Source of the DNA: Eledone cirrhosa | Lineage: Eukaryota | Length of the DNA: 64,000 nt | Assembly (NCBI GenBank): GCA_964016885.1 | Contig: OZ024749.1 | Span: 22,196,001-22,260,000, forward strand | Reading direction: 5' to 3' | In this document: positions 7,621-54,903 of the stretch, one piece after another | How the letters are laid out: the number at the start of each line of letters is the position of its first letter | Numbering within the stretch: the first letter of the stretch is position 1 | Position numbers and translations under genes: made by a program | The notes under the pieces: generated by a model | Told to the model about the DNA's origin: nothing | Databases searched by the model: none | Seen by the model: only the letters and a program-made list of their open reading frames with translations

Positions 7621-10530
7621 TTTCTCTTTCTCTTAATTTTGAGTATATTTTTTTGACCGGCCACCTTCCTGGTGGCAAGGTTGTAAAAGAAAAGAAATTG
7701 TCATCCCTTGAATCGCAAGAATGTTTTGCAAATTTTGAAGGTGCCAGCTATCGCAGCCATTTGTAGACTATGAATTAGGGAGCTGCGCTTTTTGTCCGCA
7801 AATCCAAGTTCAGTCATACTTTGGTCCAAGCGGGTTGGTATATAACCCGTAGCACCAATAATAATGGGTATGAAGCTAAAGGTGTATCTTGGATACTGGA
7901 TTTGTAAACTCCTCATCAATGGTCCGTAGATGTCCTCCTTCTCCTGTATTTTTCTGACAACGTTTACATCAAGTGGGCAGCTGATCTCCACAACAGAACA
8001 CGTTTTCAATGTGTGGTCCCAAACTACAATATCAGGCCGGTTGTGCTTTAATTTGGTGGCAGTTTTTATTTTCAGGTTCCACCAGTATTCCTTAGTGCCA
8101 TCTGTCTCAATATATTCTTCCTCGTTTGTTGTTAATTTTGTTTTCCGAAGTGCGTTCCAGATGGTTCTAGCTATCCCATCGTGTCTCATGGGGAGGTAGT
8201 AGCGAGATGACATTCTTTCGCAGCTGGCAACAATGTGGCTTACATCCTCGATCTTTGTTTTACATAGCTACAGTTATTGTCAGCTGCTGGCCCTCCTCTT
8301 TTGTGCAGCAGATATTTGGTAGGGAGTTCTTGTTCCTGTATTGCATAGAGATATCCCTCAAGGTGTGATGTCATAAACTTGTCGGAACTCCATGCCAGGC
8401 TTTTTGAGTGGTTTATCCCCTCTATGGTCTGTGTTTTACGCCTCAAGTATCCATGCACAACTTTTTCTGTAAATTGGTCAATTTTTTTTTCTTGTTTGAA
8501 CATTGAATAGGATCTTCCGATTTCTCTGGGTGAGAGATTTATATCGGGCTTTATTCCATATCTCTCCTCCAGATCAGTCGCTATTCTAATGATATTTCTT
8601 TTTTCATGGTCATAAACCTGGGCAAGATGGTTGCCAACCTTTTTCCTCTGTTGAAGGTGTTGCTTCAGTGTCACTATCCGGGTCTCATATGTTGTTAATA
8701 TTGATTTTAGACCCCGGCCACCTTCCTTGCGTGAGAAGTATAGCCTATCCACATCACCATTGATGTTAAAGTTCCCAGTAACACTGAGAAGTTTTCGAGT
8801 TCTAACATCCATCTCACTTAGTTCTTGCAATGACCAGTTCAGTAGGCCAAATGTTGGCGTTAGAATTGGTACAGCATAAGTATTGTGGGCAATGTATTTG
8901 TTGTATGCTGACAGTTCTGATGACCATATTTTCTTTACTCTTCTGAGGTATTCAGTTCTGGTTCTCTCCTTATTTATGGGTCCATCATATCTGACATTCT
9001 CATCCTGTCCAAGATATCTGTAGTTGTCACCTGACTGCAGAGGTTGTATTGTCAGGCCGTTCATCTCTAGATTTCTAGAGGAGGGCACAGCTCTTCCACG
9101 TTTTACTGCCAAATATGCACACTTGGACTCACCAAATTTCATTTTGATGTCGGTTGAAAATTGTGTAATGAGGTCCAATTGTTTCTTGATGTCATTGATA
9201 TTTGGCCCATACAACTTCAGGTCATCAACAAAGAAAAGATGGGAGATACTTCTGGTCCCACTTCTTTGTTGACCTTGTTTCCTGAGTAGGTAAGATAGTG
9301 GATTCAGTGAGAGAACGAAGAGTAGCACTGACAAGCTATCACCCTGAAAGATGCCCTTCTGGTAATGTATCTTATCAGTCTTAACCTGCTCCTTCTCACC
9401 TCTAAGGATCAAACTGGTGTACCAGTTCTTGGTCAAGCGTTCAACAGCAGCTACCAATGGTTGTGGGACTTTAGCTAACTGTAAAGCCTTAACAATCCAC
9501 CCATGAGGTACACTATCAAATGCTTTTTGATAGTCCAGCCACACGACAGTCATGTTTCTGCGATTCTTTGTTGTTTTTTCCTGAATCATTTTGTTAGTTA
9601 GTAGGTGATCTATGCAACCCCACACCTCCCTCTTTCCACCAGCTTGCTCAGGTGTTATGATGTTGTTGGTAGCACAGTGATCCTGTAAGAACAGGTTAAG
9701 GCACCCAGTATATAATTTATACATGATGTTTTGGCAGGCAATTGGGCGGTAATTTTTAGCAAGGGTGGTTTGGCTATTTTTGGGAATGAGGAGAGTAGAG
9801 GCAGTTGATAACCATCTGGGCAGTTCTTGTGTGCCCTTAATGGTTTCTGTAAACAGCCGTATGAGATCTTGCCGATAGAAAGTGAAATTCTTCAACCAGT
9901 ATCCTGTAATGAGGTCTGGGCCTGGCGATTTCCTATTCGACATTTTCTGTAGAGCTGTTTCCAGTATTGACCCATCTATGTCATATTATTTTGTCTGGAC
10001 ATGTTGGCAGTAGTCCTGTTCCAGTTCTTTTAGCCAATTAGCTTGTCTGTTGAATCCGTCATCCGTTTCCCATACAGATCTCCAGTAGCTCTCAACCTGT
10101 TCTTTTGAAGGGGTGTCATTTACACAGATTGAGCTTTTGCCACCGAAGCTGCGATAAACTGATTTAGGATCTCTGGCAAACAATCTATTTAGCACTTGTC
10201 GTTTATGTGCTGTTGACTTATATTTTAGTCTTTCTGTTGTAGCTGTGAGTTGTTGTTTCAACTGGTGTAATTTGGAGTTCAAAGTTTTAAATTTTGTATC
10301 TCCAAATCTTCTCTCTAACTTTTTCTTTAGGTCTTCCTGGTGTCGTGTGAAGTTGCTCTCTATGTTACATTTCATAACGACTGCGATGTGTGAGATACTT
10401 CGTCTCAGGGACAAAATTTTGGTTTTTAAATTTCGCATCCACGCTGGTTCAGGCTTTCTGTTTGTATCTTGATTGCGTGGTTTTAGATGTGTGTTATATG
10501 CTAGCAATGTGACAGCTGAAACATATAACA
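7621..10530 (-). mobile_element. 5'-truncated R4/Dong-clade non-LTR retrotransposon (RT plus restriction-like endonuclease) inserted in (TATG)n
   Basis: Three consecutive minus-strand ORFs with RT and RLE motifs, an ~80-bp 3' UTR with a GCCACC/GGTGGC hairpin, and (TATG)n on both sides. Confidence 0.88.
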
Positions 10531-10531
10531 A
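7701..10531 (-). pseudogene. Disrupted RT-RLE polyprotein (one stop at ~9986, one frameshift at ~8265)
   Basis: KSPGPD, NYRPIAC, WLDYQKAFDSVPH, GIFQGDSLS, LFFVDDLKLY, YRYLG; CCHC region, RHD, and HNRPDIVVWD..VVEISCP (PD..E RLE core). Confidence 0.9.
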
Positions 10532-10722
10532 TGTATGTATGCATGTATGTATGTATGTATGTATGTATGTATGTATGTATGTTATGTATGTATGTATGTA
10601 TGTATGTATGTATGTATGTATGTATGTATGTATGTATGTATGTATGTATGTATGTTATGTATGTATGTATGTATGTATGTATGTATGTATGTATGTATGT
10701 ATGTATGTATGTATGTATGTAT

Positions 10723-12945: not shown

Positions 12946-12985
<40 letters not shown>

Positions 12986-12990
12986 CATAC

Positions 12991-13690
12991 ATCGCCATTT
13001 CAGAGCACAATCCTAATACTTAATTTTTGCTGGACCGGCAATCGCTCTGTATAATCAGCTCCTGATTATGACTGGAATTATATAAGAATCCAGCTTCTAT
13101 AATTTTCGGCGGAAGGGGACAGTATGTATCTCTGATGATTGCCAACAGCATGAAACCGACTGTTAGCAAAAATTGAAAATTAGAATTGATGCTCTGTCAG
13201 CTTATCTCACCTTGTTTGCTGAAAATAGAAGTAAGTGACATAGTCACTACTTTAAAACAATAGCGTAAGGTCTTCAAAATGCTTTTAATTAAGCATACAG
13301 TGTATTGCAAAATACAGTATATATACATTCATATATATATCGCTATTTCAGAGCACCAATTATAATTTTCAATTTTTGATGGACCGGCAACCGCTCTGTA
13401 TAATTAGTTCCTGTTTATTACTGGAATTCTATAAGAATCCAACATTCATAATTTTCAGCAGACAGGAGGAGTGCTGAGCTTTGATAAATACCAACAAGTA
13501 CGAAACAGAGCTCTGTCAGCTTATCTTCCCTTGTTTGCTGAAAATAGAAGTAAGTGACATTGTCACTACTTTAAAACAATAACGTAAGGTCTTCAAAATG
13601 CTTTTAATTAAGCATACAGTGTATTGCAAAATACACTATATATACATTCATATATATATATATCGCTATTTCAGAGCACCAATTCTAATA
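12991..13690 (+). repeat. ~325-350 bp tandem repeat (2.1 units) with decayed hammerheads, family E
   Basis: Unit start atcgc(c/t)atttcagagcac at ~12991, ~13339 and ~13663; CTGATGA-ttgc-caaca-gcat-GAAA at 13132-13155; agct-ttgataa..GAAA-cagagctctg-TC-agct at 13477-13521. Confidence 0.75.
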
Positions 13691-14973
13691 TATTTATAAA
13701 CACACACACACAGAAACAGTTGCCGAAAGTAATGCGGAGCTGACTCGAAGCAGAGGAAGAAAAAAAAAAAATGAAATATCATAACAATACAAAACATTAT
13801 AACATATTGTTCCAAGGTAAAAAATAACGTTTTTTCTCTCACACGGTCATGCCAAGGAAGAAATGTGTAACGGGTAAATATAAATTAAACTGTATATATA
13901 CGTAAAATGAAAAAACAAAAAAGCTGATATGAAAACGGACAAATTAGATATATAGATAGCAGTAATTATTTTAACTTGTCGTTGACCCCTGCTTGTGTAT
14001 TTCTAAATCAAATTTTGTGTAGTTGTAAATCTAATTTTGCGCAGAAAGTTTACATATACTTCGTGTCAAATATTTCGTGTTGTTCTTACATGTTCAAAGA
14101 TGGTTTAAAAGACTTATAATACTCATAAAATGTTCACATGTTTATAACAGTCATTACGAAGGTTTCACGAAATCTGACACTGGGTCATGACTCTCTCCTC
14201 AAAGATTTGCAGAATTCTATATTTTGTTTATTTGTATTTTAGAATACATTTTATAATATATTATATAAAGAAATTGCTTAAAGAATCCTGACACGTACAT
14301 ATTTGGCTAAATTTAGATAAACTGGAATGATGGTTTATTCACCTAAAATGGTGGCCTTTGGTGAAATACTAGACGCGGGAAGTAACGTTATGAGGTGATG
14401 ATAACAAAAGAATGATAGGAAAAAATAACAGAAATGAGAGAGTGAGAGGGGGAGGTGAGAGAGGGGAGGAGGGGGAGAGAGGGGAAGAAAGAAAACTGGT
14501 TAACGGAATAAAAACATATATCTGATTGTTTTATCCCTCTATCTTTAGAGAGTGAAGGAAGACACACGCATATACACTTTCACACACACACACACAAACA
14601 CACACACATTCACACTTTCACACACACATACATATATATATACATACATACATGTGAATATATATAAATGCATATTCAAAAATATGAAAACGCATATAAT
14701 ATATATATATGTGTGTGTGTGTACTTATATATATATATATATATATATACACACGCATGTATATAAATGATTGTTTTTATTCCTCCATGTATATAACATA
14801 TTACTCATTTCTCTCTCTCTCTCTCTTCTCTATATATATACACATGTGTAGAGATGACCTTATACCACAAAGCAATGATAGAAAATGTTGGCTCTGATTT
14901 CTTTTTCGTTTTGTATGTACCTCACTGAATATATAAATAATTTAGTTCATCATATATACCATATATATGTACT

Positions 14974-15094
<121 letters not shown>

Positions 15095-15257
15095 AATTAA
15101 TATCTAGTAACATATATATACATACAGATGCATATCAATGCTAGCAAATATATAGGTTTTGTCATAGTAACTTTGTGGTTCAATGCATGGGGTTGCAGAA
15201 CAATAATATGAGAGACGTAAAATAAGAAAATTATAAAATTATCTTACTAAAATATCA

Positions 15258-15337
15258 CTTCCAACTAATTAGTTTCTGGAATGGAGTAAATATATTTTCC
15301 GAAGAAGACATGGAGAAACATTCCGTCGTCAGGGAAG
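15258..15337 (-). ncRNA. Hammerhead ribozyme, family A (inverted copy)
   Basis: Reverse complement of cttcc-CTGACGA-cggaatg...cattcca-GAAA-ctaattag-TT-ggaag. Confidence 0.78.
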
Positions 15338-15431
15338 ACTATTCTCATCTAAGTATCCAGGCAAAGCGTGGACTCTGGAAACTTATTAAAAAATAATTCA
15401 GTGGATAGGAAATAGCAAAGCGTGGACTGAA

Positions 15432-15510
15432 TTCCCTGACGACGGAATGTTTCTCCATGTCTTCTTCGGAAAATATATTTACTCCATTCCAGAAACTAAT
15501 TAGTTGGAAG
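15432..15510 (+). ncRNA. Hammerhead ribozyme, family A copy 1
   Basis: ttcc-CTGACGA-c-ggaatg..cattcc-a-GAAA-ctaattag-TT-ggaa. Confidence 0.78.
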
Positions 15511-15953
15511 TGATAATTTAGTAAGTAAGTTAATTTTATAATTTTCTTATTTTACGTCTCTCATATTATTGTTGTGCAACCCCATGCATTGAACCACAAA
15601 GTTACTAAGACAAAAACCTATATATTTGCTAGCATTGATATGCATCTGTATGTATATATATGTTACTAGATATTAATTCTTTATAATTATCTCCAAATTA
15701 TTTGTCGAGCAATATCGGCCATGACTGCTGCTATGGTAGCAGGCAGGCCGCTGTCTTATTAGCAAACCACTTTCCACTGATTGACCTCGATGTCACGTGA
15801 TTGATTCTTTTTGAATTTGCCACAGACGCAGAGGCAGTGATTTTCTCAATGGCTAGGAATTCAGTCCACGCTTTGCTATTTCCTATCCACTGAATTATTT
15901 TTTAATAAGTTTCCAGAGTCCACGCTTTGCCTGGATACTTAGATGATAATAGT

Positions 15954-16033
15954 CTTCCCTGACGACGGAATGTTTCTCCATGTCTTCTTCGGAAAATATA
16001 TTTACTCCATTCCAGAAACTAATTAGTTGGAAG
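15954..16033 (+). ncRNA. Hammerhead ribozyme, family A copy 2
   Basis: Stem I cttcc/ggaag, stem II ggaatg/cattcc enclosing ~35 nt, palindromic stem III, GUU site. Confidence 0.8.
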
Positions 16034-16471
16034 TGATATTTTAGTAAGTTAATTTTATAATTTTCTTATTTTACGTCTCTCATATTATTGTTCTCCAACC
16101 CCATGCATTGAACCACAAAGTTACTAAGACAAAACCTATATATTTGCTAGCATTGATATGCATCTGTATGTATATATATGTTACTAGATATTAATTCTTT
16201 ATAATTATCTCCAAATTATTTTTCGAGCAATATTGGCTATGACTGCTGCTATGGTAGCAGGCAGGCCGCTGTCTTATTAGCAAACCACTTTCCGCTGATT
16301 GACCTCGATGTTACGTGATTGATTCTTTTTGAATTTGCCACAGACGCAGAGGCAGTGATTTTCTCAATGGCTAGGAATTCAGTCCACGCTTTGCTATTTC
16401 CTATCCACTGAATTATTTTTTAATAAGTTTCCAGAGTCCACGCTTTGCCTGGATACTTAGATAAGAATAGT

Positions 16472-16551
16472 CTTCCCTGACGACGGAATGTTTCTCCATG
16501 TCTTCTTCGGAAAATATATTTATTCCATTCCAGAAACTAATTAGTTGGAAG
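16472..16551 (+). ncRNA. Hammerhead ribozyme, family A copy 3
   Basis: Same motif as 15954-16033. Confidence 0.8.
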
Positions 16552-16597
16552 TGATATTTTAGTAAGTAAGTTAATTTTATAATTTTCTTATTTTACG

Positions 16598-16644
<47 letters not shown>

Positions 16645-20453: not shown

Positions 20454-20511
<58 letters not shown>

Positions 20512-20515
<4 letters not shown>

Positions 20516-21297
20516 AAATAACGAAACGAAATTAAATTTCGGTTCGTTTGTAACTCACTTTTGTATGACTGACACTTAAACAATTAAGTTAAAAATGTAC
20601 ATCCACATATGTATACTGAAATACTAGTATGCATATGAATACACACACGTGTACATATGTAGATGTATCGAGTTTTTCACTGGTCACTTTACTGTGAGTG
20701 TCCAGCTATTCTGTATGTAAACACACAGACAAACCGGTTTTTAGAGTCATACTGGTTTTTGAGGAAACACCTTTCCTCTATTCTCCAGAAAGCCAGACAA
20801 GGAATATTGGACTAGTTTCGATGTTGTTACATCTCATCAGCAATATTTACCTATCTTCCGGCCTTACTAGAGAATCGTAAAAGCACATATCGTTGTATGC
20901 TTTTTCTATGAAAATTAGTAGTGGGCAGACTAATTTGCATAGAGCGTGAGTACGTACCGGTTCAACGGAGACGATAAAAACAAATAACGAAACGAAATTA
21001 AATTTCGTTTCGTTTGTAACTCACTTTTGTATGACTGACGCTTAAACAATTAAGTTAAAAATGTACATCCACATATGTATACTGAAATACTAGTATGCAT
21101 ATGAATACACACACGTGTACATATGTAGATGTACCGAGTTTTTCACTGGTCACTTTACTATGAGTGTCCAGCTATTCTGTATGTAAACACACAGACAAAC
21201 CGGTTTTTAGAGTCATACTGGTTTTTGAGGAAACACCTTTCCTCTATTCTCCAGAAATAGTATACATATGTGGATGTACATTTTTAACTTAATTGTT

Positions 21298-21299
<2 letters not shown>
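20512..21299 (-). mobile_element. Retrozyme-like array, family C: 1.6 x 466-bp monomers plus a 5' inverted 42-bp piece (21258-21299)
   Basis: aaacaaataacgaaacg at 20512 and 20978; the terminal segment is the reverse complement of an internal segment; (TA)n flanks. Confidence 0.88.
20803..20847 (-). ncRNA. Canonical minimal type I hammerhead ribozyme
   Basis: aatattg-CTGATGA-gatgt-aaca-acatc-GAAA-ctag-TC-caatatt: 7-bp stem I, 5-bp stem II, ACTAGT palindromic stem III, GUC site. Confidence 0.92.
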
Positions 21300-21333
<34 letters not shown>

Positions 21334-21479
21334 ATTTGATGCAGAGAATTACTGGTGGCAGTACGAATATGTATGAGCACTGGTAAAGTTTATACGTTAA
21401 GAGAGACAATGAGGTTTTGTATATATGTATTTAGGTAATTGTGTATCGACTGATTGCGCGCGTTTCGCACAGGATTGGC

Positions 21480-22030
21480 TCAAGGTCTTCTTCTTTGCTC
21501 ACTTTTTTCTGGCAGTCCTCAAACTCTCATTCCAGCGGGTCCTGTCAGAAGCAACAGTCTCCAATTGATCCGGCTCGATCCCCAACAGAGACCAGCCGAG
21601 CTCATGGATGTAATCCAACCATTTGCATTCCCGACAAAAACACATCATCATCATCATCATCATCATCATCCGGGAAATCGACTGAACATTTGATCTCCAT
21701 GTGGATCTGTCATTCATTGCCGCTTCCAAATCCTGGATTTCAATACCAGAATGTCTGCAGATGACATAGGGATAGGAGAGCCTGTGCCCCTTGTTATTAG
21801 TGAATGCTTGTAGTTTCTAAAGCACTAATGTGGACATAGGGATACAACCCCATAGGTGGCACGATGGCAGTGGCCAGCAAACCTTACACTACTTTTACGT
21901 ACGACAGATATACGTGGGAGGCTGGCATATTTCTTTCAAAGTCAGATGTCGCCAGCTTATGTTCTGAATGCGTCGAAGCAGGCGAGTGTAGGTGAAATCC
22001 AGGTACTATTGTTGTTTGGATGAAAGCGTC
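21480..22030 (-). mobile_element. Two RTE-like LINE 3' fragments separated by a (GAT)n tail
   Basis: Translations MEAAMNDRSTWRSNV and WLDYIHELGWSLLGIEPDQLETVASDRTRW. Confidence 0.65.
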
Positions 22031-22148
22031 CATGTTTCACCCCCCCCCCAAAAAAAGGCAACACACACACACAATCACAAACCTTTTTCCCCGATGCCTT
22101 TTTCCATGTTGCTCCTGTCCACTTCTGTCCAGGGATGAGTTTTATATA

Positions 22149-22255
22149 CTTATCAGACCCATGCTTATCTCGGTTAAATTGGTATTAAATATATAAGATT
22201 TATATACTTATATATTTAATACCAATTTAACCGAGATAAGCATGGGTCTGATAAG
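22149..22255. repeat. Perfect 49-bp-arm palindrome with 9-nt spacer
   Basis: cttatcagacccatgcttatctcggttaaattggtattaaatatataag followed by its reverse complement. Confidence 0.9.
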
Positions 22256-22454
22256 CAACACTCCACCGTTTAACCTTCTAATGTACTCGGGTAAAGGCCA
22301 CACACGATCATACGCCTTTAGTAAATTTTGCATACATGCTCACATACACACACACGCACACACACACACATATATATAAATATACAAACACCCATACATA
22401 TAGATCAGTATATCTGTGTGTATATATATATGTATATATATGTATGTGCATATA

Positions 22455-22503
<49 letters not shown>

Positions 22504-22565
22504 CGGCGAGTGTGTTCTGTTATTAATTCTGGCAATATTACACAAATATGACCCTCCCCAAGTAT

Positions 22566-22626
<61 letters not shown>

Positions 22627-22749
22627 TATACATGTATGTATGAATGTATATATATATGTGTATATAAGTATGTATACGTACATACATATATGTATACAGA
22701 CGTAAAGTAGTATGTATATATATATATACATACATGCACACATATATAT

Positions 22750-23425
22750 ATGTACGTATGGATTGACCGAACATTTATTATATTCCTCGGTGTGTTTGTA
22801 AACAAACAGCCCGAATTAAGCCGTAGTGTCTAGCAACCATCGTTGCTCATATGTTCAACACTGTACGTATACATACTTATGTACGTGTACATACTTATAT
22901 TTAAGTAACAGCCGTACTAAGAGTGAGAAATGAAATTTCGTTTCATTTTTTCCGTTTATCGTTTTCGGTACCCCGGCCGATTAACTCACTCAATATGCAA
23001 ATTAGGCTGCTCAGCAGTTAATATGCATAAGGAAAGAATATACTTTCAGACGTTCAACCATCTGGCAGGAAGGTATACGTTGCTGACGATAGCTAATAAG
23101 CTTGAAACTAGTACAGCGTTCCTTTGTAAGTGTTGAACAAATGAGCAACGATGGTTGCTAGACACTGTACAGCTTAATTCGGGATGTTTGTTTACAAACA
23201 CACCGAGCATTATAATAAATGTTCGGTGAATCCATACGTACATATATATATGTGTACATGTATGTATATACATATATATATATGTGTACATGAATGTATA
23301 TATATATATATATACATACTACTGTACGTTTGTATACATATATGTATGTAAGTATACACACTTATATTTAAGTAACAGCCGTACTAAGAGTGAGAAATGA
23401 AATTTCGTTTCATTTTTTCCGTTTA
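22750..23425 (+). mobile_element. Retrozyme-like array, family C': 5' inverted piece (22750-22861) plus 1.2 x ~467-bp monomers
   Basis: cttatatttaagtaacagccg at 22894 and 23361; 22750-22861 is the reverse complement of ~23130-23241. Confidence 0.85.
23077..23119 (+). ncRNA. Minimal type I hammerhead ribozyme (U.U-closed stem II)
   Basis: acgttg-CTGACGA-t-agct-aata-agct-t-GAAA-ctag-TA-cagcgt. Confidence 0.88.
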
Positions 23426-23692
23426 TATATATGTATATATATATATTTATATATGTATGTATGTAATATATCTATGCATGTGTATTCGTTTGTATGTGCC
23501 TGTAGGTATACGTAAGTGATATTATGTGTGTTTGTATGTGTTAAAACGTACTAAAGCCTTATAGTCATTTGTGACATTTTTATAAAGTGAACTGAATATA
23601 AAAGGAATATAATACAAAACAATAAAATAAAATAATAAATAAATATCATAGTTTTTCTATAATTTTTGAATCTGTTCGCAATATGAATCTTA

Positions 23693-24175: not shown

Positions 24176-25535
24176 AAATTTGAAGACTAAAATCCAAAGA
24201 GGGCTCGATAAGGATAAATATATATCAAATATATAAGAACCGTAGAGCAAATATTTATTAAAATAACAGATTAAAGTTTAAGCAAAGAATCGCTGCTTTC
24301 ACCCTTAACGGGATCTTCTGAAACTAACAAAGTCAATCTGTAAACGCAGAACTGGATATTTCAAAAAACGTTGCAACCGGAGGAAGACAGGAAGACGATA
24401 CTTTGGTTCGTGGAAACGTTCGCTGGCTAAGAACGGGAAAAAACGAATATAATACGTCATTAATAGGAGCGGTGAAAAACAATTACGCGCAAAGACAGAA
24501 CCACGTTTATGGTATAATAGAGGTCGTAGACTAATGTTCTCTTAGGTGGTGCATAGAGACGTTCTCTGGCGATGAACGAAAAAAACCAAGATAATACGTC
24601 ATATGTGGAGCGTGGAGAACAATAGCACGCAAAGACAAAACCACGTAAATGGTATAGCAGAAGTCGTAGACTAAATTCTAACTAGGAGACCGAATGAATC
24701 TCCGCTACGGAGTTAAGAACAAAGTAAATAAATACAATACAGAAGTAATAGAAATAAATAAATACATACACGCAAACAGAAACGTACATACACAAGCATA
24801 CGCAAAAACTTACCATAGGTAAACAAAACCACGCACATATAAATATGTGTGTGTGTGTGTAAGCGTGTATACAAATAAATAAATAATTATATAAACGTAT
24901 ATAAATAAATAAATACGTATATAACAAGCGCACACACATACCTACATGTAAATACACGAATGTTCGGAGACGTAAGTCAACCAAAACATGAAGTACACAT
25001 ATACACACGCCCTACATACGTACGAACCTGCATACTCACACAGACGCAAAACTCCCGTATACACATAGCCGAACCATATGTACCAGAATATATAAAAACA
25101 TTATACGCCATAACAATCAAATATACGTACGAGAAGGTATACGTACCTTCACAAAACATACGGATAATATATACTTACCTATGCAAATAAGTAAAGGTAT
25201 AAACAAAACATATACTTAGCTCCCACATCGAGACGTAAAATATCCACGTATAGATCATACTATCCGTTAGGGTATAACGTGGGGCTGTAATACAGGAAAG
25301 TTTTGTGCAATTTATGTTTACAAGCCGAAATTGCCTCAGATTTTTTGTTTAAGATGTGGTCTGTGGCGTAGAGTATTTCCAGGGCCTCAGCGGCGCAGAG
25401 GTCACATGGTCTTTTATTTCCGTTATACGATCTAGCCCTAGCTAGGATCTCCCAGTGTAACTTATATTGGGTGTGGTTGTCTTTTAGACTCCAGATATAA
25501 GCTGAAAGTGACGTCATATTCCTTCTTAGAGGGTA
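24176..25535 (-). mobile_element. 5'-truncated Penelope-like element (GIY-YIG C-terminus, 3' region, pseudo-LTR)
   Basis: Minus-strand [45 protein letters not shown] at 25260-25535; the 24176-24324 terminus recurs as a palindrome at 46631-46855. Confidence 0.85.
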
Positions 25536-25676
25536 ACGAAAAGAATGGGTATGCATGTATACGTACATACATACATATGTACAGACGTACAGTAAGAATG
25601 GGTATGCATGTATACGTACATACATACATAGTACAGACGTACAGTAGTATGTATATACATACATGCACACACACAC

Positions 25677-25802
<126 letters not shown>

Positions 25803-25989
25803 GTGGGTTTACCGAACATTTATTATAATGTTCGGTTTGTTTGTAAACATATATATATACTTTTGGATCCTGTCCTTATTTTGATACTCCTGAAGAAGAG
25901 CTAAAGCCCGAACAACTAATTAGACATTTTGTACCTCTGTTTGTTGTTCCTTAAACTACACACACACACATATATATATATATATAAAG

Positions 25990-26648: not shown

Positions 26649-26864
26649 TTGGTGAAGCCACGCTTCTTATCGCCTCCAGTCTTTTTCAACGTTTTACCTC
26701 TTTTTCAACCGTTCTAAACCTTTTATTCAAGTTTTAAATTTGATAAAAGTTTAGAAGAAGTGACCCACCTAATACAGGGGTTCACTAGTAAATAATACGG
26801 CACCCCTTTACGGGGTGTCGTATTCGTATTTGTGTAAAAATATATATTTTTTAAAAATTTCAAC

Positions 26865-28838
26865 ATGGATATCACAAAAAAAAAAGAGAGAGCGCTGTCA
26901 GACAACACAGAGAGAGGGAGACTTTATCAGCATGTCAACAAGACAGCGTTCCAGCGGAGGTAAATATAAACGAAAATATTACAAACGAAAAAGAAATTGT
27001 TACAGATTTAAAATTACCAAATATTTCTAACACAAACAACACCAACAATAACACCAACAACATCACCAACAACAACACCAAAAATAACAGCGATAAAGTC
27101 GAGAACGACAATAACAAAAATAACAGCGGTAAGGTCGAGAACGACAATAACAATGACAATAACAACAGCCACAACAACAATAATAGTAGGAACAGTATCA
27201 ACAAAAACAACAATAATAACAACAGCCACAATAACAGTAACAGCAGCAACAGTATCAACGAAAACAACACCAACAACTGTACCAGCGAAAAGAACAGCAA
27301 TGACACCGATACCTGTAATAGCGACCTCAGCACCACCAGTAAGACCAGTAGCGGCAGCAATAGTGGTGCTGCTGAAAAAGGGACCACTTCTTTTGCAGGT
27401 GTCGCCCGAAATATCGAGACAGTGTTAGTCACAGAGGAGGAGATGGCAGTCGCAAGGGCCATGGTGACAAGAAGCGCAAATAGAGTTTCCCTGAAACCTC
27501 CACCCGATTTTTTCAAGGACCAGCAGCTACGGACGGTGACTTACCGCACCGTAAACAAAATCTCACATCGAGTGGAGAGAGCCACGGAGGCTCAAATCCA
27601 AAAGGCCTTGGGGTGCGTCTGGGCACGCAAAACCCACATCACCCGAGGCAGAAAGTACGCCACAGTAGACATACTTTTCGCCACCCCCCAGGAAGCAAAG
27701 TCTCACTCTTTGGAAACCCTAAAGAGTGACGAGTTAGTCTTGGTGCCCTCCCACTGCGGGCAGAAAATCGTGAGGGTCAAAGTGACCCAGGTCCCACCCG
27801 ACGTGCCCATACCTTGGCTGGCCGCGTCTGTCCTTGCTGGAATTGAGAACAGGGCGACCATGCTGGAAGTAGAAAAAATAGGGAGAGAGAACTGGTCAGG
27901 TATAGGCATGCAAATGCTTATACAAACTGACCAGGAATGTATCGAGGCTATCCCCGATATCATAGACTTCGAGGAAGGACTCCAACTCCCTATACGTGTA
28001 GAAGAAAGACGGCCAAAATGTTATCTCTATGGGTTGAAAGGTCACCTCAGGGCCTTTTGCCCGCAGAAGACACCGAAGAGGTCCGCTGCTACCAAGAGCA
28101 GGACAGGCAACAAACGAAGAAGCCCCTTCCACGGTGAGTAGGAGGGCAACGTCCGTAGCACCCGTACCAAGGCCATGGATAACTAAAGCAGCATCATCAG
28201 TAGCGGCAACACCAATAGCTACATTTGAAATAGCTACACCAGCAACACAATTGCCGAAGAGGGCTCCACAACCACCACCAAAAGCCGTGGAGCACAAACC
28301 CCTCCCAGACGCCACAGAATCCGACGTGGAGTTTGAGGCGGGAGTGACGTGGCAAACAGTCTGCCACAAAAAAGAAAAAAAAAAACCCCTTAGATTCACC
28401 CTCCAAAAGCGAAGGCATACAAAGAGGGGTAAAGGCAGCAAGGAAACTTGCAGCAACACCACCACAAACACCAACAACGCAAACACAAAACACACACACC
28501 AAACAGCAACAAGAAGAAAACGGCAACAAAATCACCCCTCCCCCCAAAAAGTACACAGCCATAAACATAGCAAAAAAAGAACTCATAAAATATATAAAGC
28601 AGCACACAGACATCACGGAAAAAACTACTACACCCCACCAACACCAAGAACTCTCCCGACAAACATAAGCATCATCGAAATCTCAATAGAACAGTACAAA
28701 CCTTCAAAACAAAAATTCCCCAACGGAGTTGGAGACTTCAGAGGTACGCTTACCAAGAGGATATACACTGACATCCTCTTGGAAACGCCCATGACCAGCG
28801 AAAGGGACGGTTCTACTGTCCCTTCACCACACGAATAA
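26865..28838 (+). pseudogene. Tx1 ORF1 (Asn-rich N-terminus, RRM-like region, degenerate CCHC knuckle), frameshifted
   Basis: RPKCYLYGLKGHLRAFCP (second Cys mutated); pieces 27422-28141 and 28134-28838; start position approximate. Confidence 0.75.
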
Positions 28839-28879
28839 GGTAAGTGACCCTTTCTCATTTGCCTCGTTTCTCATCCAAC

Positions 28880-31800
28880 ATGGCTGTACTCAGAATAGGC
28901 AGTATAAATGCACGTGGCCTGGGGTCATCTTGGAAGCAGGGTCACCTGCTCAAAGACCTCAGGTCACTAAACATAGATGTGGTGGCCATCAGTGAAACCA
29001 GAATCTCCGAGGCACGGGCCTTCGCACTGATCTTCGGCGGCTACGATGTATACGCATCTTCCAGCCGTCCAGGATCGGGGGGAGGGGTTGCCGTCCTTTT
29101 TCGGAGAGGCTTGGATCTCGCGATACGGGCCTTCTTCCTGGACCCAGAAGGTAAGTCGGTGGTGCTGGACGTGACCGGCAGCGAAGGCAATGCTTTCAGG
29201 CTAGTAGCCGTCTACGCCCCAACAGGGGCAGGACGGCCAGATTTCTTCAGACGTCTAGAGACCTTTCTTGGAACGTCCCGCTCTTTAGTGTTAGTGGGCG
29301 AGTGGAACGGTATCTTGGATGCACGCTGGGATCGTGTGGGGCTAGTGGATAGGGGAGGAGGGTGCAAGAGCCTCACCAATCTGCTCAGACGTTTTGAACT
29401 GTCTGACAGGTATCGACTGGATCACCCGAATGTGCCAATGTGGACATGGACAAACCGCATCGGGTCATCCAGATCGTATCTAGATAGGGTATTCTGCAGG
29501 GAACTAGATAAGGCTAGTATAAGTTGTCCACATTTAAAATAGTCGACTACACAGACCACACATTTGTGATCTGTGAGATCGACATAGACAAGGGCCTGGT
29601 TACTGGAAGCTGAACGCGTCTTTCCCGGCGCGCAAGGCCTACAGAGACCGGATTAGCGTATTAGTTAAGCGGGCGTTGACGGGAGCGGTCGTCAACAACA
29701 GGTGGTGGTTCGCCCTGAAAAGGGCAATTAAAGTAGAGTCGATTAGGTTTAGCAAAGGAGTAGTGATAGAGGAAAATAGAGTAGAGGGAGAGCTAGTCAG
29801 AAATCTAGAAGAGGCGTTTAGGACAGGCATCGCAACCGACGTGCTTGCGGCGAGATTGGCACTCGACCAATTCTTCAACGCAAAACACGAAGGCTGCGTT
29901 GTCAGAGCTAGAGCGCGTGCTCTGAAACACGTGGGGACAAAATCCGTCCAATGGGCCCGGGTGGCAGAGGCGCGACGTGGAAACAAATCCACAATTCGGT
30001 CTTTGCCTGACCAAAACGGGTGCGGGATGCTCGAACCCGAGCGGATGTGTGAAGCTTTTCAGCAACACTTTGCTGAACTGTTCGGGAGCGGCGGCGGCCC
30101 GGATCGGGGCATGGACTTCAGTGCATACCTCGACGGACTGCCTCGGCTCTCGACGACCGCAGCACAGTGTTGCGAAAAGCCAATAACAGCCGGTGAAATA
30201 CGGGAAGCGATGGCTGACTGCACAAGAGGTAAATCGCCAGGTTTAGATGGTCTGCCCTACGAGCTTTATGCATTTATGCCAGACTTGTTCGGTGACCTCT
30301 TGGCAGACGTCTACTGCAACTGGCAGCAGAACGGGAGCATTCCCAGTTTTGTGAGCCGGGGAGCAGTGGTGCTGCTGAGAAAAGACCCGAACAAGGAGGA
30401 TGTTATTGATAATTTCAGGCCCATAACCCTGCTAAACGCAGAATTCAAGATTTTGGCCAAGGTGTTAGCAACGAGGTTGGCGCTTGTCGTCAAGGGTCTG
30501 GTGGGAGAGGCGCAGACATGCGCCATTCCGGACAGATCCATACACGACAACCTCCACCTCATGCGATACATCATAGAGAGGGTGGTTAAGGAACCTGGCA
30601 AGGGTGGGGCCCTGATCAACTTGGATCAATCCAAAGCATTCGATAGGGTCGACCATCGGTACCTGGTGGCGGTCCTCGAGGCAGCCGGTTTGGGGCTCGT
30701 TTTCAGGCGTTGGATCGCAGCAATGTACAGCGACATCTGCTCAGTTGTGAGGGTGAACGGTCACCTGTCGCAGCCGTTCAGCATCATGCGCTCAGTCCGC
30801 CAGGGTTGTCCCCTCTCGTCCCTCTTGTACGTATTGGCTCTCGAGCCGTTACTGCACAAACTGGGTGCGATGAGGCGCGTCCCACGCGAACTAGGATGCG
30901 GGAAATCCGAGTCGGCTTACGCTCGGCACCGCTCTCAAGGAATACGAAGCGGTGACAGGAGCAAAGATAAACCAGGAAAAGTCGGTGGGCTTGCAGCTAG
31001 GCACCTGGAGAGGCAAGTCCATGCCGTCCGACAGCGTCGTGGGGCGTTGGACGGATGGACCGGTTAAATTGCTCGTGGTCTGGTTCGGACCGGACTTCCA
31101 GATGGAGAAAAACTGGAACGAGGTGACGAGCAGGGTGGCCTCCCTCACCCAGAAATGGGCTGAGAGGAAGCTGTCTCTGAAAGGCCGGGCGGAAGTGGCG
31201 AATGCGTACATCGCATCCGTCACCTGCTACCGCCCCACCGTCGTCCCTTGCTCCAGCCCAACTCTCACCAAAATGGAGCGCCTCCTCTTCCGCTTTTTGT
31301 GGAAAGGACGCGCTCCCATGGTCACACGATCTATCTGCTGTCAACACCCGTTGCGTGGAGGACTGGGCATGCCATAGCTGATGATGGGCAAACATGCGCT
31401 GAGGCTGCGACATCTCTGGTGCTTCCTTGATGGTGAACGTGTGTGGTCGCCGTTCGCCAGGCACATTTTCCCACAGCTCGTCTCCTTGACGGAGCTGCAG
31501 TCCTGGGTCAGAAAAAGACCGAAGAATAGCGCTTGGAAACTGGAATGTCTCCAGGCGCTCACTGCCCTTTCCCAGTTGGGCACCAGTATTGGTGGAACAT
31601 CCACCTCGGCGTTCTATAGAGGACTAGTGGAGGGGAAGAGCGACGACATTCTCGGAGAGATCCTGGGCGTCGAAGAAGATCAGCTGTTTGCTCTCTTCCG
31701 AAGAACTTTCAGCCCGGAGCCTATGGATAACTTCCAAAAATCCCTGGCCTGGCAGTGCTACCGGGGAGCGCTGCCGGTTCGAGATAAGCTCTACAGGCAC

Positions 31801-32238
31801 GGAAGTGCCGTCAGCCGAGCCTGTCCGAGATGCGCGCATAGCGACGAAACCGTTGTGCACGCACTCGTTCAGTGCTCGAGCATTGCTGACTTGTGGAGCT
31901 ATGTCGAACAGTTGCTGTCGCGTGTGGGACTGATCCGGTTGTCGACTGAGTCCATTGTGCAGATGGTCTCGCCGTCTTCCTTCGAGGAGGAAGGGCAGGC
32001 GGTTTTCATCTGCCTGGTGGTCATGGCGAAAGAGATTGTGTGGTGGACAAGGTTAAAAGGATTAAAGACAAACACTTTCCTCTTCGGCGAATCCCTAATT
32101 AACTTTTTCAAGTTTCACTTGAAGAGGTAAATCAGGGTGGAGAGGCAAGTGCTGCTTTCTAGCAAGTTTGTTGAAAGGTAGGTGAATGTAGCGAGAATGG
32201 TCCGAGTGAATTGGACCGCTCTGAATATACGTCTGTAG
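28880..32238 (+). pseudogene. Tx1 ORF2: APE endonuclease, reverse transcriptase and C-terminal zinc finger; multiple stops, frameshifts and deletions
   Basis: IGSINARGL, ISETR, VYAP, SYLDR; GKSPGLDGLP, FRPITLLN, LDQSKAFDRVDH, VRQGCPLS; CPRC...ETVVHALVQC; the YADD aspartates are deleted at ~30925. Confidence 0.92.
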
Positions 32239-34110: not shown

Positions 34111-34142
<32 letters not shown>

Positions 34143-34151
<9 letters not shown>

Positions 34152-34716
34152 CGTAAAATAAGAAAATTATAGTAATTAACTCACTTACTTAAATTTCACT
34201 CCAACTAATTAGTTTCTGAAAGAGGATATACATAGTCTCCAAATGGAGGCCATGGAGAATCCTTTCTTCATCAGGGAGTCATTCTCGGCTAAGATTCCTG
34301 GCGATTCGCAGATACAGGGATCGAATACAAAAATAATTCAGTGGATGGAAAAAAGCTAGCGTGGACTAAATCCCAAGCCATTGAAAACTTCACCGCCTTC
34401 CTGGTCAGTGGCAAATTCAAAAGAATCAATCACGTGACATCGAGGTTAATCAGTGAGGAGTGGGTGTTAAAAAGACAGTAGTCAGGCTTAATACTATGAA
34501 CCATAGTAGTAATTTAGGCAAATTTTGCTCAACAAAATAATTTGGAGATAATTATAAAAAATTAGTATATTTACCAACATATTTATACAGATGTATACTT
34601 ACGCTAGCAAAGATATAGGTTTTGTCTTAGTAACTTTGTGGTTCAATACAAAGAGATGTAGAACAATTATATAAAAGACGTAAAATAAGAAAATTATAGT
34701 AATCAACTAACTTACT

Positions 34717-34720
<4 letters not shown>
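34143..34720 (-). mobile_element. Divergent family A element, 1.1 monomer (~527 bp plus ~50-bp terminal direct repeat)
   Basis: tataaaagacgtaaaataagaaaattatagtaat at ~34143 and ~34669; colinear with the 15-16.6 kb monomer. Confidence 0.85.
34198..34279 (-). ncRNA. Hammerhead ribozyme, family A divergent copy
   Basis: actcc-CTGATGA-a-gaaagg...tctttc-a-GAAA-ctaattag-TT-ggagt; stems I and II covary relative to the 15-16 kb copies. Confidence 0.82.
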
Positions 34721-34764
<44 letters not shown>

Positions 34765-38009: not shown

Positions 38010-40470
38010 TAATTTTTACACAACAACAACAATACCAACAATAACAACACTACCATCATCACAACTAACAACATCAACATCAGCAGCAGCAACATCACCA
38101 CCACCACCACCTCTACCAATAACAACTCTACCAGCAGCAGCACCATCGACACCACCACTACCACCACTACCACCACCACCACCACCAATAACAACAATAA
38201 CAACAACGATGACAACACTACCATCACCACAACCAATAACAACAACATCAGCAACAGCACAATCACCACCACCACCACCATCACCACCACTACCACCACC
38301 ACCACCACCATCACCATCACCACCACCATCACCACCACACCACCGCCACCACCATCACCATCACCACCACCATCACGGCCATCACCCCCCCCCCCCCCCC
38401 CCCCCCCACCACCACCACCACCACAACCAACACCACCACCACCAGCACCACCACCACCATCAGCACCACAATCACCACTATCACCACCACCACCACCAAA
38501 ACCACCACCACCATCACCACCACAACCAACACCACCACCACCATCACCATCACCACCACCAACATCACAACCACCATCACCACCATCACCACCACCACCA
38601 CCACCACCACCACCATCACCACCACAACCAACACCACCACCACCATCACCATCACCACCATCACCACCACCAACATCACAACCACCATCACCACCATCAC
38701 CACCACCACCACCACCACCACCAGCACCAGCACCACCACCATCACCACCACCACAACCAACACCACCATCACCACCATCACCACCAACATCACCACCACC
38801 ATCACCACCATCACCACCACCACCACCACCAACACCACAACCAACACCACCACCACCACCATCACCACCATCACCACCACCATCACCACCACCACCAACA
38901 ACACCACCACCACAACCACCACCACCACCACCACGACCATCACCACCATCACCACCACCACCACCAACACCACAACCAACACCACCACCACAACCAACAC
39001 CACCACCACCACCATCACCACCATCACCACCACCATCACCACCACCACCACCACCAACAACACAACCAACATCACCACCACCACCACCACCATCACCACC
39101 ATCACCACCACCAACACCAACACCATAACCAACACCACCACCACCACTACCATCACCACCACCACCACCATCACCATCACCACCACCACCATAACCACCA
39201 CTACTACCACCACCACCACCATCACCATCACCACCACCATCACCACCACCACCACCACCACCGTCACCACCACTACCACCACCACCACCACCACCATCAC
39301 CATCACCCCACCATCACCACCACCACCACCATCACCACCACCACCACCATCACCACCACCACCACTACCACCACCACCACCATCACCACCACCACCACCA
39401 CCACCACAACCACCACCACCACCACCATCACCACCACTACCACCACCACCACCACTACCATCACCATCACCACCACCACCACCACCACCATCACCACCAT
39501 CATCACCACCACCACCACCACCACCACCGTCACCACCACTACCACCACCACCACCACCACCATCACCATCACCCCACCATCACCACCACCACCACCATCA
39601 CCACCACCACCACCATCACCACCACCACCACTACCACCACCACCACCATCACCACCACCACCACCACCACCACAACCACCACCACCACCACCATCACCAC
39701 CACTACCACCACCACCACCACTACCATCACCATCACCACCACCACCACCACCACCATCACCACCATCATCACCACCACCACCATCATCACCACCACCACC
39801 ACAACCACCACCACCACCACCATCACCACCACTACCACCACCACCACCACTACCATCACCATCACCACCACCACCACCACCACCATCACCACCATCATCA
39901 CCACCACTACCACCAACACCACCATCACCACCATCACCACCACCACCACCAACACCACAACCAACACCACCACCACCACCACCATCACCACCACCACCAC
40001 CACCATCACCACCACCACCACCACCACCACCACCACCACCACCATCACCATCACCACCACCACCATCACCACCGTCACCACCATCATCACCACCACCACC
40101 ATCATCACCACCACCACCACCACCACCACCATCACCACCACCATCACCATCACCACCACCATCACCACCATCACCACCACCACCACCATCACCACCACTA
40201 CCACCACCACCACCACCACCACCACCACCATCATCACCACCACCATCGACACCATCCCCACCACAACCACCACCAACAACATCAACACCACCACCACCAC
40301 CACCACCACCAGCAACAACAACAATAACACCACCTCCACCACCACCACCACAGCCAATAACAACACTACTAGCACCACAACAAACAACAACAACAACAAC
40401 AAAACACCACCATCATTACAACCAATAACGAAAACAAGAACATCAACAACAACAACAGCAACGACACCAC
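38010..40470. repeat. ~2.4-kb (CAC/CAT/CAA)n trinucleotide array with internal ~266-bp duplication
   Basis: The 817-aa 'ORF' switches between poly-P, poly-H and poly-T as the phase shifts, so it is not a gene. Confidence 0.92.
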
Positions 40471-42711: not shown

Positions 42712-42788
<77 letters not shown>

Positions 42789-42837
42789 AAATAAAGTTAA
42801 ATAAAAGTCAAATGATTAAAATTTAGCTTCGTTTATT

Positions 42838-42892
42838 ACTGCTATATATATTTCAGTGACAGCCATCTTTGACTGTGACCTCTTCAGGCAGT
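42838..42892 (-). ncRNA. Hammerhead ribozyme in inverted pLTR
   Basis: actgc-CTGAAGA-ggtcacag..ctgtcact-GAAA-tatata-TA-gcagt. Confidence 0.85.
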
Positions 42893-42955
42893 TTGAATTA
42901 GTATGGTATAGACAAGTACATATGTTGTTTAGGTGTATGATATTGTCAATACTCT

Positions 42956-44910
42956 GGTTCAAAATACTGCATGAGAAAAGTAGGACCAGCTTTATACAAC
43001 TGGAGATCGCAAGCTACTACTCCTCAATCTCACCCATAGTACTTAATAAGGCCCTATTTTTAGCGATGTCCAATACGGACCTAACCCGAGAAAAGGTGAG
43101 CATCATCCACGCCGCAAGAAAGACCTTAATCCGCTTCGATGGAGACCTGTGGACCAGGAGTGATTGGCCAAATAACTTTGACATCACGATGGGCTCCAGC
43201 GACTCAGCGCAGGTAACGGACCTGGTTGGGCTCTACCTGCTGAAGCAGATAAAAGATGAAATCCCCTGCCTGGGCGGCGGATTATATCGTGACGATGCTC
43301 TATTCACAGTACATGACCACAGCACCAATATGTTGGAGGGTATGAGGAGACGTATTCGCCATTTCTTTAAGAACCAGGGGCTCAGCATAGAAATTGACCC
43401 AAATAGGAAGGTAGTTAACTTCCTAGACACCACCCTAAACCTGAACACCGAGCAATACTACCCCTACCACAAGCCCAACGAGAAACTAGTATATGTTAAC
43501 GCCAAATCAAACCACCCTAGATCCATAACCAAGGCAGTGGTGAAGAGTGTCTCGGACAGGATCTCCAGCCTGTCCGCAAGTAAGAAAATATTCAACAACC
43601 ACGCGGAATATTACAACGCAGCTCTAAAGAAGGCGGCACATGGACAAAATATAACATATAGTCCGAAAAGCCGGGAGGTGGATAGCCCAACAGACACCCA
43701 CAACCGCGTTACCAGAGGGGGGAGGGCGAACCCTAACAATACAGGCAGAGCAAAATCAAATAGGCACCATGTACCAGACACCACCACACGGGCGGTGGGG
43801 ACTAGTGCGCTTGACCACGAGATGGAGCACAATATGAGTAGCAGTCTCAGGCGTGATGCTAACTACCCCAGGACGGACAACCCCAACCGCAGGACACGTG
43901 GGGGGGGGGAGGAAACGGGCGACCACCCCACGATGGATCTCCCGGGGCAGACAACAACCACCCCACAAATCCGGGCCGTGAAGATAACAAAAAGTATAGA
44001 GCCCAAAAGGGAAGCAACAGTGCGGAAACCACCAGCAAACCAACAAATCTCCAACAAATCACGAAGTCCCCAACCCACACATATAGGAGGAGACACCGAC
44101 AAATCACGTGGTACAACCCACCCTACTCAGCGGCCCTAAAGAAAAGCTTGGCCCGATTGTTCTTTGGAGCACTTGACAAATGCTTCCCGAGGGACCACAG
44201 ATACCACAGGATCTTCAACAGACACACTGTGAAGCTTTCGTATTCCACCACGAGAAATTTGGCCCAACACATAGCTAGCATCAACAGAAGTAGGCTTAAA
44301 AACCACACACAACCAGATGATGGCAATACAAACACTCAGCAGAACCATGTGAAAGGAGGGAAGGGGGGACCCAGAGCCCACCCAAGAAACACAAACAGAC
44401 CCAAGGACCCCCCACCGAGCATGGGGGAAGACCAACATGTAACACATAATGAGAACCCTAATCTAAGCACGCAGAGGCCGCCCACCCTCTGCAACTGTAG
44501 AAACCCCGAATCATGCCCCCTTGGTAATGAATGTCTCAAGAAGAACATAGTGTACGGTTGTAGGGATAAAACCCCCAACTCCGAACACCTCTAGGAGCCA
44601 CATCAACGAGCTTTAAGGACCGCTGGTACAACCATCGCCATTCATTCAAGAAGGAGGCCAAAAGGAAAAGCACAGCTCTCTCCGACCTGATCTGGAAGCT
44701 TAAGCTGGACAGGACCCCATACTCTCTGGCCTGGTACATAATCAGGAAAGTACCACCCGATAAAGGGGGATCTTGCATATGCAAACTATGCCTGAACGAG
44801 ACCCTCGAGATACTAAGAGGTGGAAGCGGCCTGATAAACCTCAGAACCGACTTCTTCGGGACATGCAGACACCTTAGAGCCGGGACCTTTCTCAAAATAT
44901 ATGGACAGTA
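42956..44910 (+). pseudogene. Penelope RT plus GIY-YIG endonuclease, N-truncated, two frameshifts (~44100, ~44590)
   Basis: ITMGSSDSAQVTDLVGLYLL, GGLYRDDAL, VNFLD, SNHP; CNCR..CPL..CLKKNIVY; LGATSTSFKDRWYNH; CKLCLNE; CRH. Confidence 0.9.
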
Positions 44911-46095
44911 GCAACATAAGAAGATGTGAACTCCCCTCAAGCTATAGGGACTTCTACAGAACATGAAAACACCTCTCGGCCAGACCTCCCTCAAGCTATA
45001 TGGACAATTACAACACCCTAGGTTGTGAACTCCCCTCAAGCCATAGGGAACAACCCAGGTGGAGCAGACACCATGATAGCCTAGAGATAGAATCGGACAC
45101 AGCCATAATAATCTGGCCAACATCTATAACACAAACACTTTTAATTTACCAGATTTCTGACTTTAAAGTTCCAATCTTAAATCTTGATTTCTCTTTATTA
45201 ATTTGTTATTTGTTTTCTGCCCTCTTCACTGTATAACCTTATATTTATTTTAAGTTGAGATAGATTATAACACAAACACATTGAATATCTCATCTTAACA
45301 TCTTGTATCATACCAATCTATCCAACATATTCTGACCTTGAGATTGGTTATAGCACACACACACACACACTTTATCCTACATTATTTCTCACTTCTCCAT
45401 ATACATTATCATTACTTTTTCACCAGTCTCTCATTTACTCTTTATTCTTTATTCTCTATTTATTTATTTATTTTCAAATTACACAAATTATATTAATTAT
45501 TTTATTTTATTATATTATTTATTTATCTTCTGTTCTCTTCATTTATTGCCTTATATTTCTTCATATACATGAAAGAACCCCCCCCCCGCCACCACCACTA
45601 CGATGGTGGCGGGTGGGATGAAGAGAAAACACAAACTGAATACTTCTAAATTGTTAGCAGCAGCAAGGTATAAGCTGACCACTACAACAACAACAGTACC
45701 AAAATAATGGTGGAGGTCAAATGTACTGAACAATAGCAGGCATAAACACCACAGGGAGCCTCACCCCAGAAAGAATTCTATAGACTTCTGACTGAGGAAT
45801 GCTCTCAGAACTGAACAATGGGAAGTTTGACACATTTTTTGCTATTTTGTTCCTTCAACACCTTGTCCCTTCTACCATCTTATCAATTTTTAAGCTAACT
45901 CCAACAATGACAACACTAATAACTGACCAATGAGAGGAGAAGGGGACCTGTGACATGAAAATTCGTTTGTTTGAATTCATATGACTCCAGTTCCCCAGTG
46001 AATTAACAACCCAGCAAGGAACTGGGCATATCAGAGTATTGACAATATCATACACCTAAACAACATATGTACTTGTCTATACCATACTAATTCAA

Positions 46096-46150
46096 ACTGC
46101 CTGAAAAGGTCACAGCCAAAGATGGCTGTCACTGAAATATATATAGCAGT
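46096..46150 (+). ncRNA. Hammerhead in 3' pLTR with a G8A core mutation
   Basis: actgc-CTGAAAA-...-GAAA-tatata-TA-gcagt. Confidence 0.75.
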
Positions 46151-46292
46151 AATAAACGAAGCTAAATTTTAATCATTTAACTTTTATTTAACTTTATTTT
46201 ACACTACTCCGGAGTAACCAAACCAACCTGCGCACTTCGTCGAGTGCTCCAGCCTGCATACTGAGGTGTTGGTATACAACCAACATAAACTC

Positions 46293-49203: not shown

Positions 49204-49209
<6 letters not shown>

Positions 49210-54677: not shown

Positions 54678-54903
54678 CATACATATATATATATATTTAT
54701 ATATATATATATATATACATATATATATTTATATATATATATATATATATATAAGGATTAGAATACAGGAGCGTTTTGAAGTTAAACACCCTCTTCGTAT
54801 TATAGAAATGACAGTAAAAGGTATAGCTCAATGCAGTTAAACAGAGCCAAAAAATTAAGAGAGTAAAACAAAGAATCCTTTAATACATCAAAAGTTTTTA
54901 TTA

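Follow-up and report, generated by a model that had tools for sequence, protein, structure and literature searches.

Comparison of two tandem loci in the 64-kb window (the whole stretch of DNA analyzed here) places them, as judged from their sequences, in homologous, multi-copy dispersed and non-coding repeat families, which we term C and C'. What the loci present directly are units in register, a fixed junction, hammerhead motifs, two arms, matching arm ends and, for C', a high copy number. We consider it very probable that each locus holds a truncated member of one of two non-LTR retrozyme families, with mobilization likely due to Penelope-like elements. The C and C' loci bear on two questions, the transcription and the reverse transcription of animal retrozymes. 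Two diverged families side by side offer a natural footprint of requirements, consisting of an octamer block, a hammerhead and two arm-end hairpins, which makes both questions amenable to small, direct experiments. Every component has precedent in retrozymes, Penelope footprints or newt satellite 2, so the pair should be useful to specialists more than surprising.

Units of the C and C' families

Inspection of the family C locus on the minus strand reveals a forward arm (20510-21257) of ~1.6 units, one full (20973-20508) and one partial (21257-20974), that runs into (TA)n. Its 466-bp period appears as a 284-nt direct repeat (20508-20791 and 20974-21257) at 98% identity. The inverted arm lies on the plus strand (21259-21298) and is a 40-nt copy of 21083-21044. 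The family C' forward arm on the plus strand (22860-23426) holds ~1.2 units, a full one at 22960-23426 and a partial one at 22860-22959, and ends in a TA-rich repeat; a period of 467 bp is seen in a 92-nt repeat (22868-22959 and 23335-23426) at 92% identity. The C' inverted arm on the minus strand (22648-22862) spans 215 nt equivalent to 23129-23367, is 36 nt shorter within an AT-rich stretch, and has 4 nt in common with the forward arm where the two join. Both periods and both inverted 5' arms agree with the first-pass annotation of this DNA. TA microsatellites flank C and C', as seen when the flanks were inspected for target-site duplication.

The same annotation described two families that differ over most of their length and share an octamer and a terminal hairpin. 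The divergence and both common elements hold, and the conserved block is larger than the octamer, at ~115 nt with ~72% identity. Alignment of C with C' from hairpin to octamer scores 58 versus a maximum of 28 in 500 shuffles, and the hammerhead region scores 33 versus a maximum of 23, also in 500 shuffles. In-register alignment of C with C' runs from the terminal hairpin through the unit junction to past the octamer and resumes at the hammerhead; in the middle part of the units, matches are confined to AT-rich sequence. The junction falls at a homologous base in both families, which argues for defined units over chance joins of truncated pieces.

Such chance joins are part of a different reading, in which both loci are nothing more than pseudo-LTRs, the 5'-truncated 3' ends left by autonomous Penelope-like elements. 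PMC8557442 and PMC4209133 between them describe minimal hammerheads, tails, inverted arms and partial tandems as features of Penelope elements, and at 25541 an endonuclease frame directly borders a C'-like fragment. Beyond the homologous position of the join, this reading is opposed by the recurrence of the 466 step in independent contigs: a 495-nt contig of run X4, matching window positions 20620-21085, closes on itself to give one clean family C cycle of 465 nt, and one contig of run X12 steps back 466. The longest ATG frames of C and C' (50 and 81 codons) leave the units with no protein-coding frame and likewise speak against it, and we regard a pseudo-LTR origin as quite improbable.

The retrozyme reading is favored by the combination of features found in both families, namely a type I hammerhead, a head-to-tail unit with a fixed junction, no coding capacity, GC content below 50% (36% for C, 34% for C'), a predicted RNA that is highly self-paired, and multiple copies. 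In PMC7229834, the non-LTR retrozymes of coral, mussel and axolotl share this profile as short, low-GC, non-coding tandem units with a type I hammerhead, strong self-pairing and high copy number, in genomes with Penelope-like elements; the C and C' units lie slightly above the 150-450 bp range given there for metazoan retrozymes. Copy number was assessed for C' over the stretch 22895-23240, which is matched by 10,360 contigs in run X1, 107 in X9 and 27 in X5; over this stretch no X4 contig matches, a result that proves nothing. Sequence words of family C occur in 20 of the 24 listed runs, and ten contigs from three of the four runs compared were aligned; the listed runs include no RNA run. Matching words in 17 organisms were considered as a host range and rejected, as depths are low outside organism A and no read of the raw-read run X23 could be aligned.

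The first-pass annotation had further proposed that both monomers are held near 466 nt by a length constraint. In its favor, the family C unit measures 465-466 nt in the window, X4 and X12, and the segment-by-segment differences between C and C' (+2, -12, 0, +25, -9 and -5 nt) sum to +1, as constraint would give, with a rough chance estimate of ~4% for a pair that was chosen after the fact. Within C', however, the two arms differ by 36 nt over the same anchors: the distance between these anchors is 99 nt in the forward arm and 63 in the inverted arm, and the fragment at 25.7 kb has 171. Periods of ~350 and ~520 are found for other hammerhead-like repeats of the window, and published families range from 51 to 972 bp (10.64898/2026.07.22.740005) and carry 20-nt indels (PMC7229834). 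Tight selection on length is therefore unlikely, and the best reading is that unit length is loosely inherited.

Hammerheads and the predicted RNA fold

Minimal type I hammerheads with an ACTAGT stem III lie at both loci, as previously annotated. The C motif occupies 20803-20847 on the minus strand, with its core at 20840, a palindromic stem III and predicted cleavage after 20810; the C' motif occupies 23078-23118 on the plus strand, with its core at 23083 and predicted cleavage after 23113. Rfam returned 0 matches in the 64-kb window at gathering thresholds. The C' hammerhead has a G-U pair in stem I, and its stem II starts with a U-U mismatch at the base, as does that of axolotl HHR_Amex2 (PMC7229834). 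Like the Penelope pseudo-LTRs described in PMC4209133, both loci combine a minimal hammerhead with a short palindromic stem III and an expected action as dimers. Pair differences between C and C' in stems I and II are compensated, and the C' stem I pair 23080/23116 varies on both sides among sister copies (22% and 14% at 23080, 41% at 23116).

Predicted circular folds of the C and C' units are more stable than those of shuffled sequences (z of -9.5 and -8.9, 60 shuffles). With the AT-rich hairpin removed, z becomes -7.4 for C and -4.8 for C', as compared to +1.4, -2.2 and -0.4 for three control stretches. The antisense strands fold as well (z of -3.9 and -4.3), so folding alone leaves the strand unfixed. 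Eight predicted hairpins occur in the same order in both families, with two additional loops in C'. Polymorphic sites of C' are paired in 56% of cases versus 67% overall, and several disrupt predicted pairs; as modeled, the fold outside the hammerhead has weaker support than the hammerhead itself.

Each locus carries one hammerhead, which means that neither alone can release unit-length RNA, and the expectation of a ~466-nt RNA from these loci is not upheld. Under the definition of Li, Clavereau and Pollet, by which an 'active' retrozyme copy has two hammerheads, both copies are classed as truncated members, and the window copies are probably dead ends. A good-looking hammerhead may also be inactive, given that in vitro cleavage failed for 8 of the 9 Xenopus dimers predicted (10.64898/2026.07.22.740005). 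As a side observation, the 495-nt X4 contig has six private changes, of which four read A>G when viewed on the hammerhead strand, three of those four in predicted stems, a pattern from one contig that is too weak to use; this contig could represent a homogeneous array or an edited circular RNA.

Arm ends and a probable Penelope-type insertion

The forward arms of C and C' stop at a homologous TTTAT directly after the terminal hairpin. This hairpin occupies 20519-20548 in C (minus strand; second copy 20985-21014), with the forward end at 20510, and 23393-23416 in C' (plus strand; second copy ~22926-22949), with a fixed forward end at 23426 (= 22959). For C', passage from the position equivalent to 22959 into TA repeats recurs in at least 61 contigs of X1, at least 4 of X9 and at least 2 of X5. 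The annotated role of the terminal hairpin as the end of the unit is hence borne out, with a fixed insertion end directly after it followed by TA repeats. The inverted arms stop at a second site, in the loop of a small ACTTA/TAAGT hairpin that lies at 20573-20589 in C (minus strand; arm end equivalent to 20578, then (TA)n) and at 23360-23373 in C' (plus strand; arm end equivalent to 23367). This site is 68 nt upstream of the forward end in C and 59 nt upstream in C'. Two matching arm-end sites common to both families are new here; the first-pass annotation mentions neither the second of these sites nor the common fold. In the literature searched (main texts without supplements, for the most part outside subscription journals), there is no report of cephalopod retrozymes or of two fixed arm ends, and the portions examined of two metazoan retrozyme accounts (PMC7229834 and 10.64898/2026.07.22.740005) contain no two-armed layout, fixed arm ends or internal promoter.

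Both forward arms span the predicted cleavage site with the ribozyme intact, from which we infer a template that was either circular or a multimer left uncut. Two of the four arm starts lie shortly after predicted cleavage (18 nt at 20791 in C and 15 nt at 23129 in C'), a proximity that is too weak to use because the span was picked afterwards; starts 15-18 nt past the cleavage site might mean that a cut RNA was copied almost to its end.

The overall layout of C and C' is that of a Penelope-type footprint, with a partial tandem, an inverted 5' arm, a tail at one end and a microsatellite target. Penelope insertions are described in PMC8557442 as partial tandems with an inverted arm, a one-sided tail of 30-40 bp and (TA)n targets. 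The likeness to the EN+ Penelope-like elements in that text extends to the 5' truncation of the inverted arm and the one-end position of the tail. In contrast to those elements, C and C' lack the RT plus GIY-YIG endonuclease frame of an autonomous Penelope-like element, cycle at 466/467 nt, and have tails of 68 and 59 nt instead of 30-40 bp. Comparison of the C and C' ends and octamer blocks with five neighboring elements, three of them Penelope-like, gave no significant similarity in 20 comparisons (best 5 of 200 shuffles), and no partner emerged among these window elements.

Penelope-like frames with their own hammerheads and inverted arms occur elsewhere in the window, at 42.8-46.3 kb and 54.7-59.7 kb, and resemble RT and GIY-YIG domains. 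In the first (42787-46290) the frames are broken and a hammerhead lies near 46100; its inverted arm of 170 nt (42787-42956) stops ~85 nt before the forward end is reached. The second (54750-59690, minus strand) has a 690-codon RT/GIY-YIG-like frame and a cysteine-rich linker; its hammerhead at 54938 looks canonical, and its inverted arm measures 98 nt. Across four Penelope-like frames, Pfam gave a GIY-YIG hit in only one, below threshold, and solved structures gave 0 matches. A diverged C'-like fragment with an expanded TA tract (25541-25849, minus strand) directly adjoins a Penelope-like endonuclease frame of which the 3' part is present (25260-25540); the join within 25260-25849 could reflect a nested insertion, or else a switch of template from one RNA to the other, passenger and partner.

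The octamer block and the promoter question

The octamers lie where the first-pass annotation located them: that of C (20933-20940, minus) precedes stem I by 85 nt and that of C' (22995-23002, plus) by 75 nt. The 64-kb window contains five octamers versus 5.26 expected, and at this chance frequency the presence of the motif alone means little. In both families the octamer forms the 5' arm of a predicted hairpin (-11.3 and -13.2 kcal/mol), positioned at 20906-20942 in C (minus strand; octamer 20940-20933) and at 22994-23029 in C' (plus strand; octamer 22995-23002). A TATA-like position follows 43 nt past the octamer start in C (20893-20897, minus strand) and 42 nt past it in C' (23037-23042, plus strand). 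The box is altered in both window copies, which read TACAA in C and have A at 23037 in C'. Sister copies of C' have T at 23037 in 99.9% of X1 depth; for C, the base is T in both contigs that cover the place (X4 and X16), a count of two contigs only. An internal octamer-plus-TATA promoter is plausible on these sequence grounds, and we place it at an even balance. Promoter function is a candidate role only, as the octamer is also a predicted hairpin arm and its invariance is not significant alone.

Conservation of the octamer across copies had been set beforehand as one of the points on which the proposal should stand or fall, and the motif is conserved: one variant row falls within its eight positions in C' (40 of 48 variant rows examined), at 0.014% of X1 depth. 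In the smaller runs the variant reaches 5% in X9 and 25% in X5, where contigs are few. Given 27 polymorphic sites among 346 in C', eight invariant sites are expected by chance at P 0.52, and octamer invariance by itself is not significant. The partner strand of the C' octamer hairpin exists in two forms, with 23023 and 23025 changed at 7% in X1 and the minor form identical to that of C. Either form leaves one mismatch, and the octamer-side change that would close it is the variant found at 0.014% in X1. That is to say, the octamer stays constant while its partner varies, which favors a requirement for the sequence.

These observations bear on a reading in which the octamer is kept as a part of the RNA, either as a hairpin arm or as a protein-binding site, or by descent, with transcription arising from read-through. 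The hairpin position in both families, the location of the octamer within the ~72%-identity block, the chance-level invariance and the uniform octamer spacing among metagenome loci (below) are consistent with such a role. The one-sided constraint, with a variable partner arm beside a nearly invariant octamer in X1, argues against it, as does the TATA-like box at +42/+43 in sister copies of both families (for C, in two contigs). We judge this reading a serious contender that falls somewhat short of an even chance.

Returning to the candidate promoter, both units contain internal T5-T6 runs, which favor polymerase II and disfavor polymerase III as the source of unit-length RNA. Tissue-specific POU control, as suggested by the annotation, is not implied by the motif and was rejected. 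The octamer also serves ubiquitous snRNA-type promoters such as those of H1 and U6. A mollusc snRNA proximal sequence element was not found in the literature searched. The promoter of newt satellite 2 reportedly contains an octamer and a proximal element. That satellite is a 330-bp hammerhead tandem repeat reported to have an internal snRNA-type promoter used by polymerase II (Coats, Zhang and Epstein 1994 and Cremisi 1992, as cited by later work). C and C' resemble it as hammerhead tandem repeats in which an internal snRNA-type promoter is a candidate only. They differ in that newt satellite 2 is amphibian, has a 330-bp unit and is reported to be transcribed, whereas C and C' are known from sequence and have their TATA-like box in sister copies. 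A further likeness is to the hammerhead SINE-like repeats of Schistosoma, which carry a promoter in the 3' part of the cleaved unit such that only tandem copies propagate (PMC6765202). Those repeats use a polymerase III promoter; in C and C', the T5-T6 runs would probably halt polymerase III before it left the unit.

In the mechanism that we favor for the two families, multi-unit loci elsewhere would be transcribed from the internal octamer-plus-TATA promoter, more likely by polymerase II, a step on which we are evenly divided. Paired hammerheads would then cut out unit-length RNA, which a host ligase may circularize by analogy with the mussel and axolotl retrozymes, for which such circularization was shown in vitro (PMC7229834). 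A Penelope-like endonuclease would nick both strands of a TA tract, the accompanying Penelope-like reverse transcriptase would prime at two structure-defined sites 59-68 nt apart, from both sides of the break, and the two cDNAs would be joined at their 5' ends. Penelope mobilization of retrozymes has been proposed, with its mechanism not demonstrated, in the available portions of PMC7229834 and 10.64898/2026.07.22.740005. A stronger version holds that C and C', which do not align over half their length, keep in full the cis code by which a circular-RNA parasite would promote itself, consisting of a hairpin-borne octamer-plus-TATA promoter, a dimer-type hammerhead and two structure-defined priming sites, used by a Penelope enzyme from either side of a DNA break. 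If true, the pair would define the minimal RNA mobilized by Penelope enzymes; we hold this version to be tentative and rather doubtful.

A metagenome scan for an octamer combined with a hammerhead core was also considered as support. The scan yielded 99 loci of ~700 estimated, 42 of them with good stems in 31 clusters. Octamer spacing was uniform over 70-100 nt (KS p 0.49), which indicates no general octamer-hammerhead rule, and comparison of the 99 loci with C and C' gave nothing beyond AT-rich or octamer-anchored matches of 19-31 nt. Given the uniform spacing and the lack of a real match to C or C', the metagenome loci were rejected as support. Six of them (L002, L009, L010, L075, L093 and L097) form a repeat family of their own, in which a minimal hammerhead is preceded by an octamer, an inverted octamer-like arm and a TATA-rich stretch; its spacing is unlike that of C and C', and its sequence does not match theirs.

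The window at large is AT-rich and rich in microsatellites and retroelement frames. A two-armed tandem family at 15088-16604 has a period of ~518-523; it lacks an exact octamer, and its CTGACGA core departs from the ordinary order of a hammerhead. A relative at 34129-34723 is 77% identical. The tandem repeat at 12963-13700 (period ~350) carries a hammerhead-like core at 13132 and a second, decayed one. Short hammerhead-bearing fragments lie back to back beside a TA tract at 49205-49310, and an inverted repeat with arms of ~55 nt (22135-22260) is situated between C and C'. Two non-LTR retrotransposons of other types, both decayed, and a CAC triplet array of 2.2 kb account for 7701-10654, 26855-32130 and 38096-40351.
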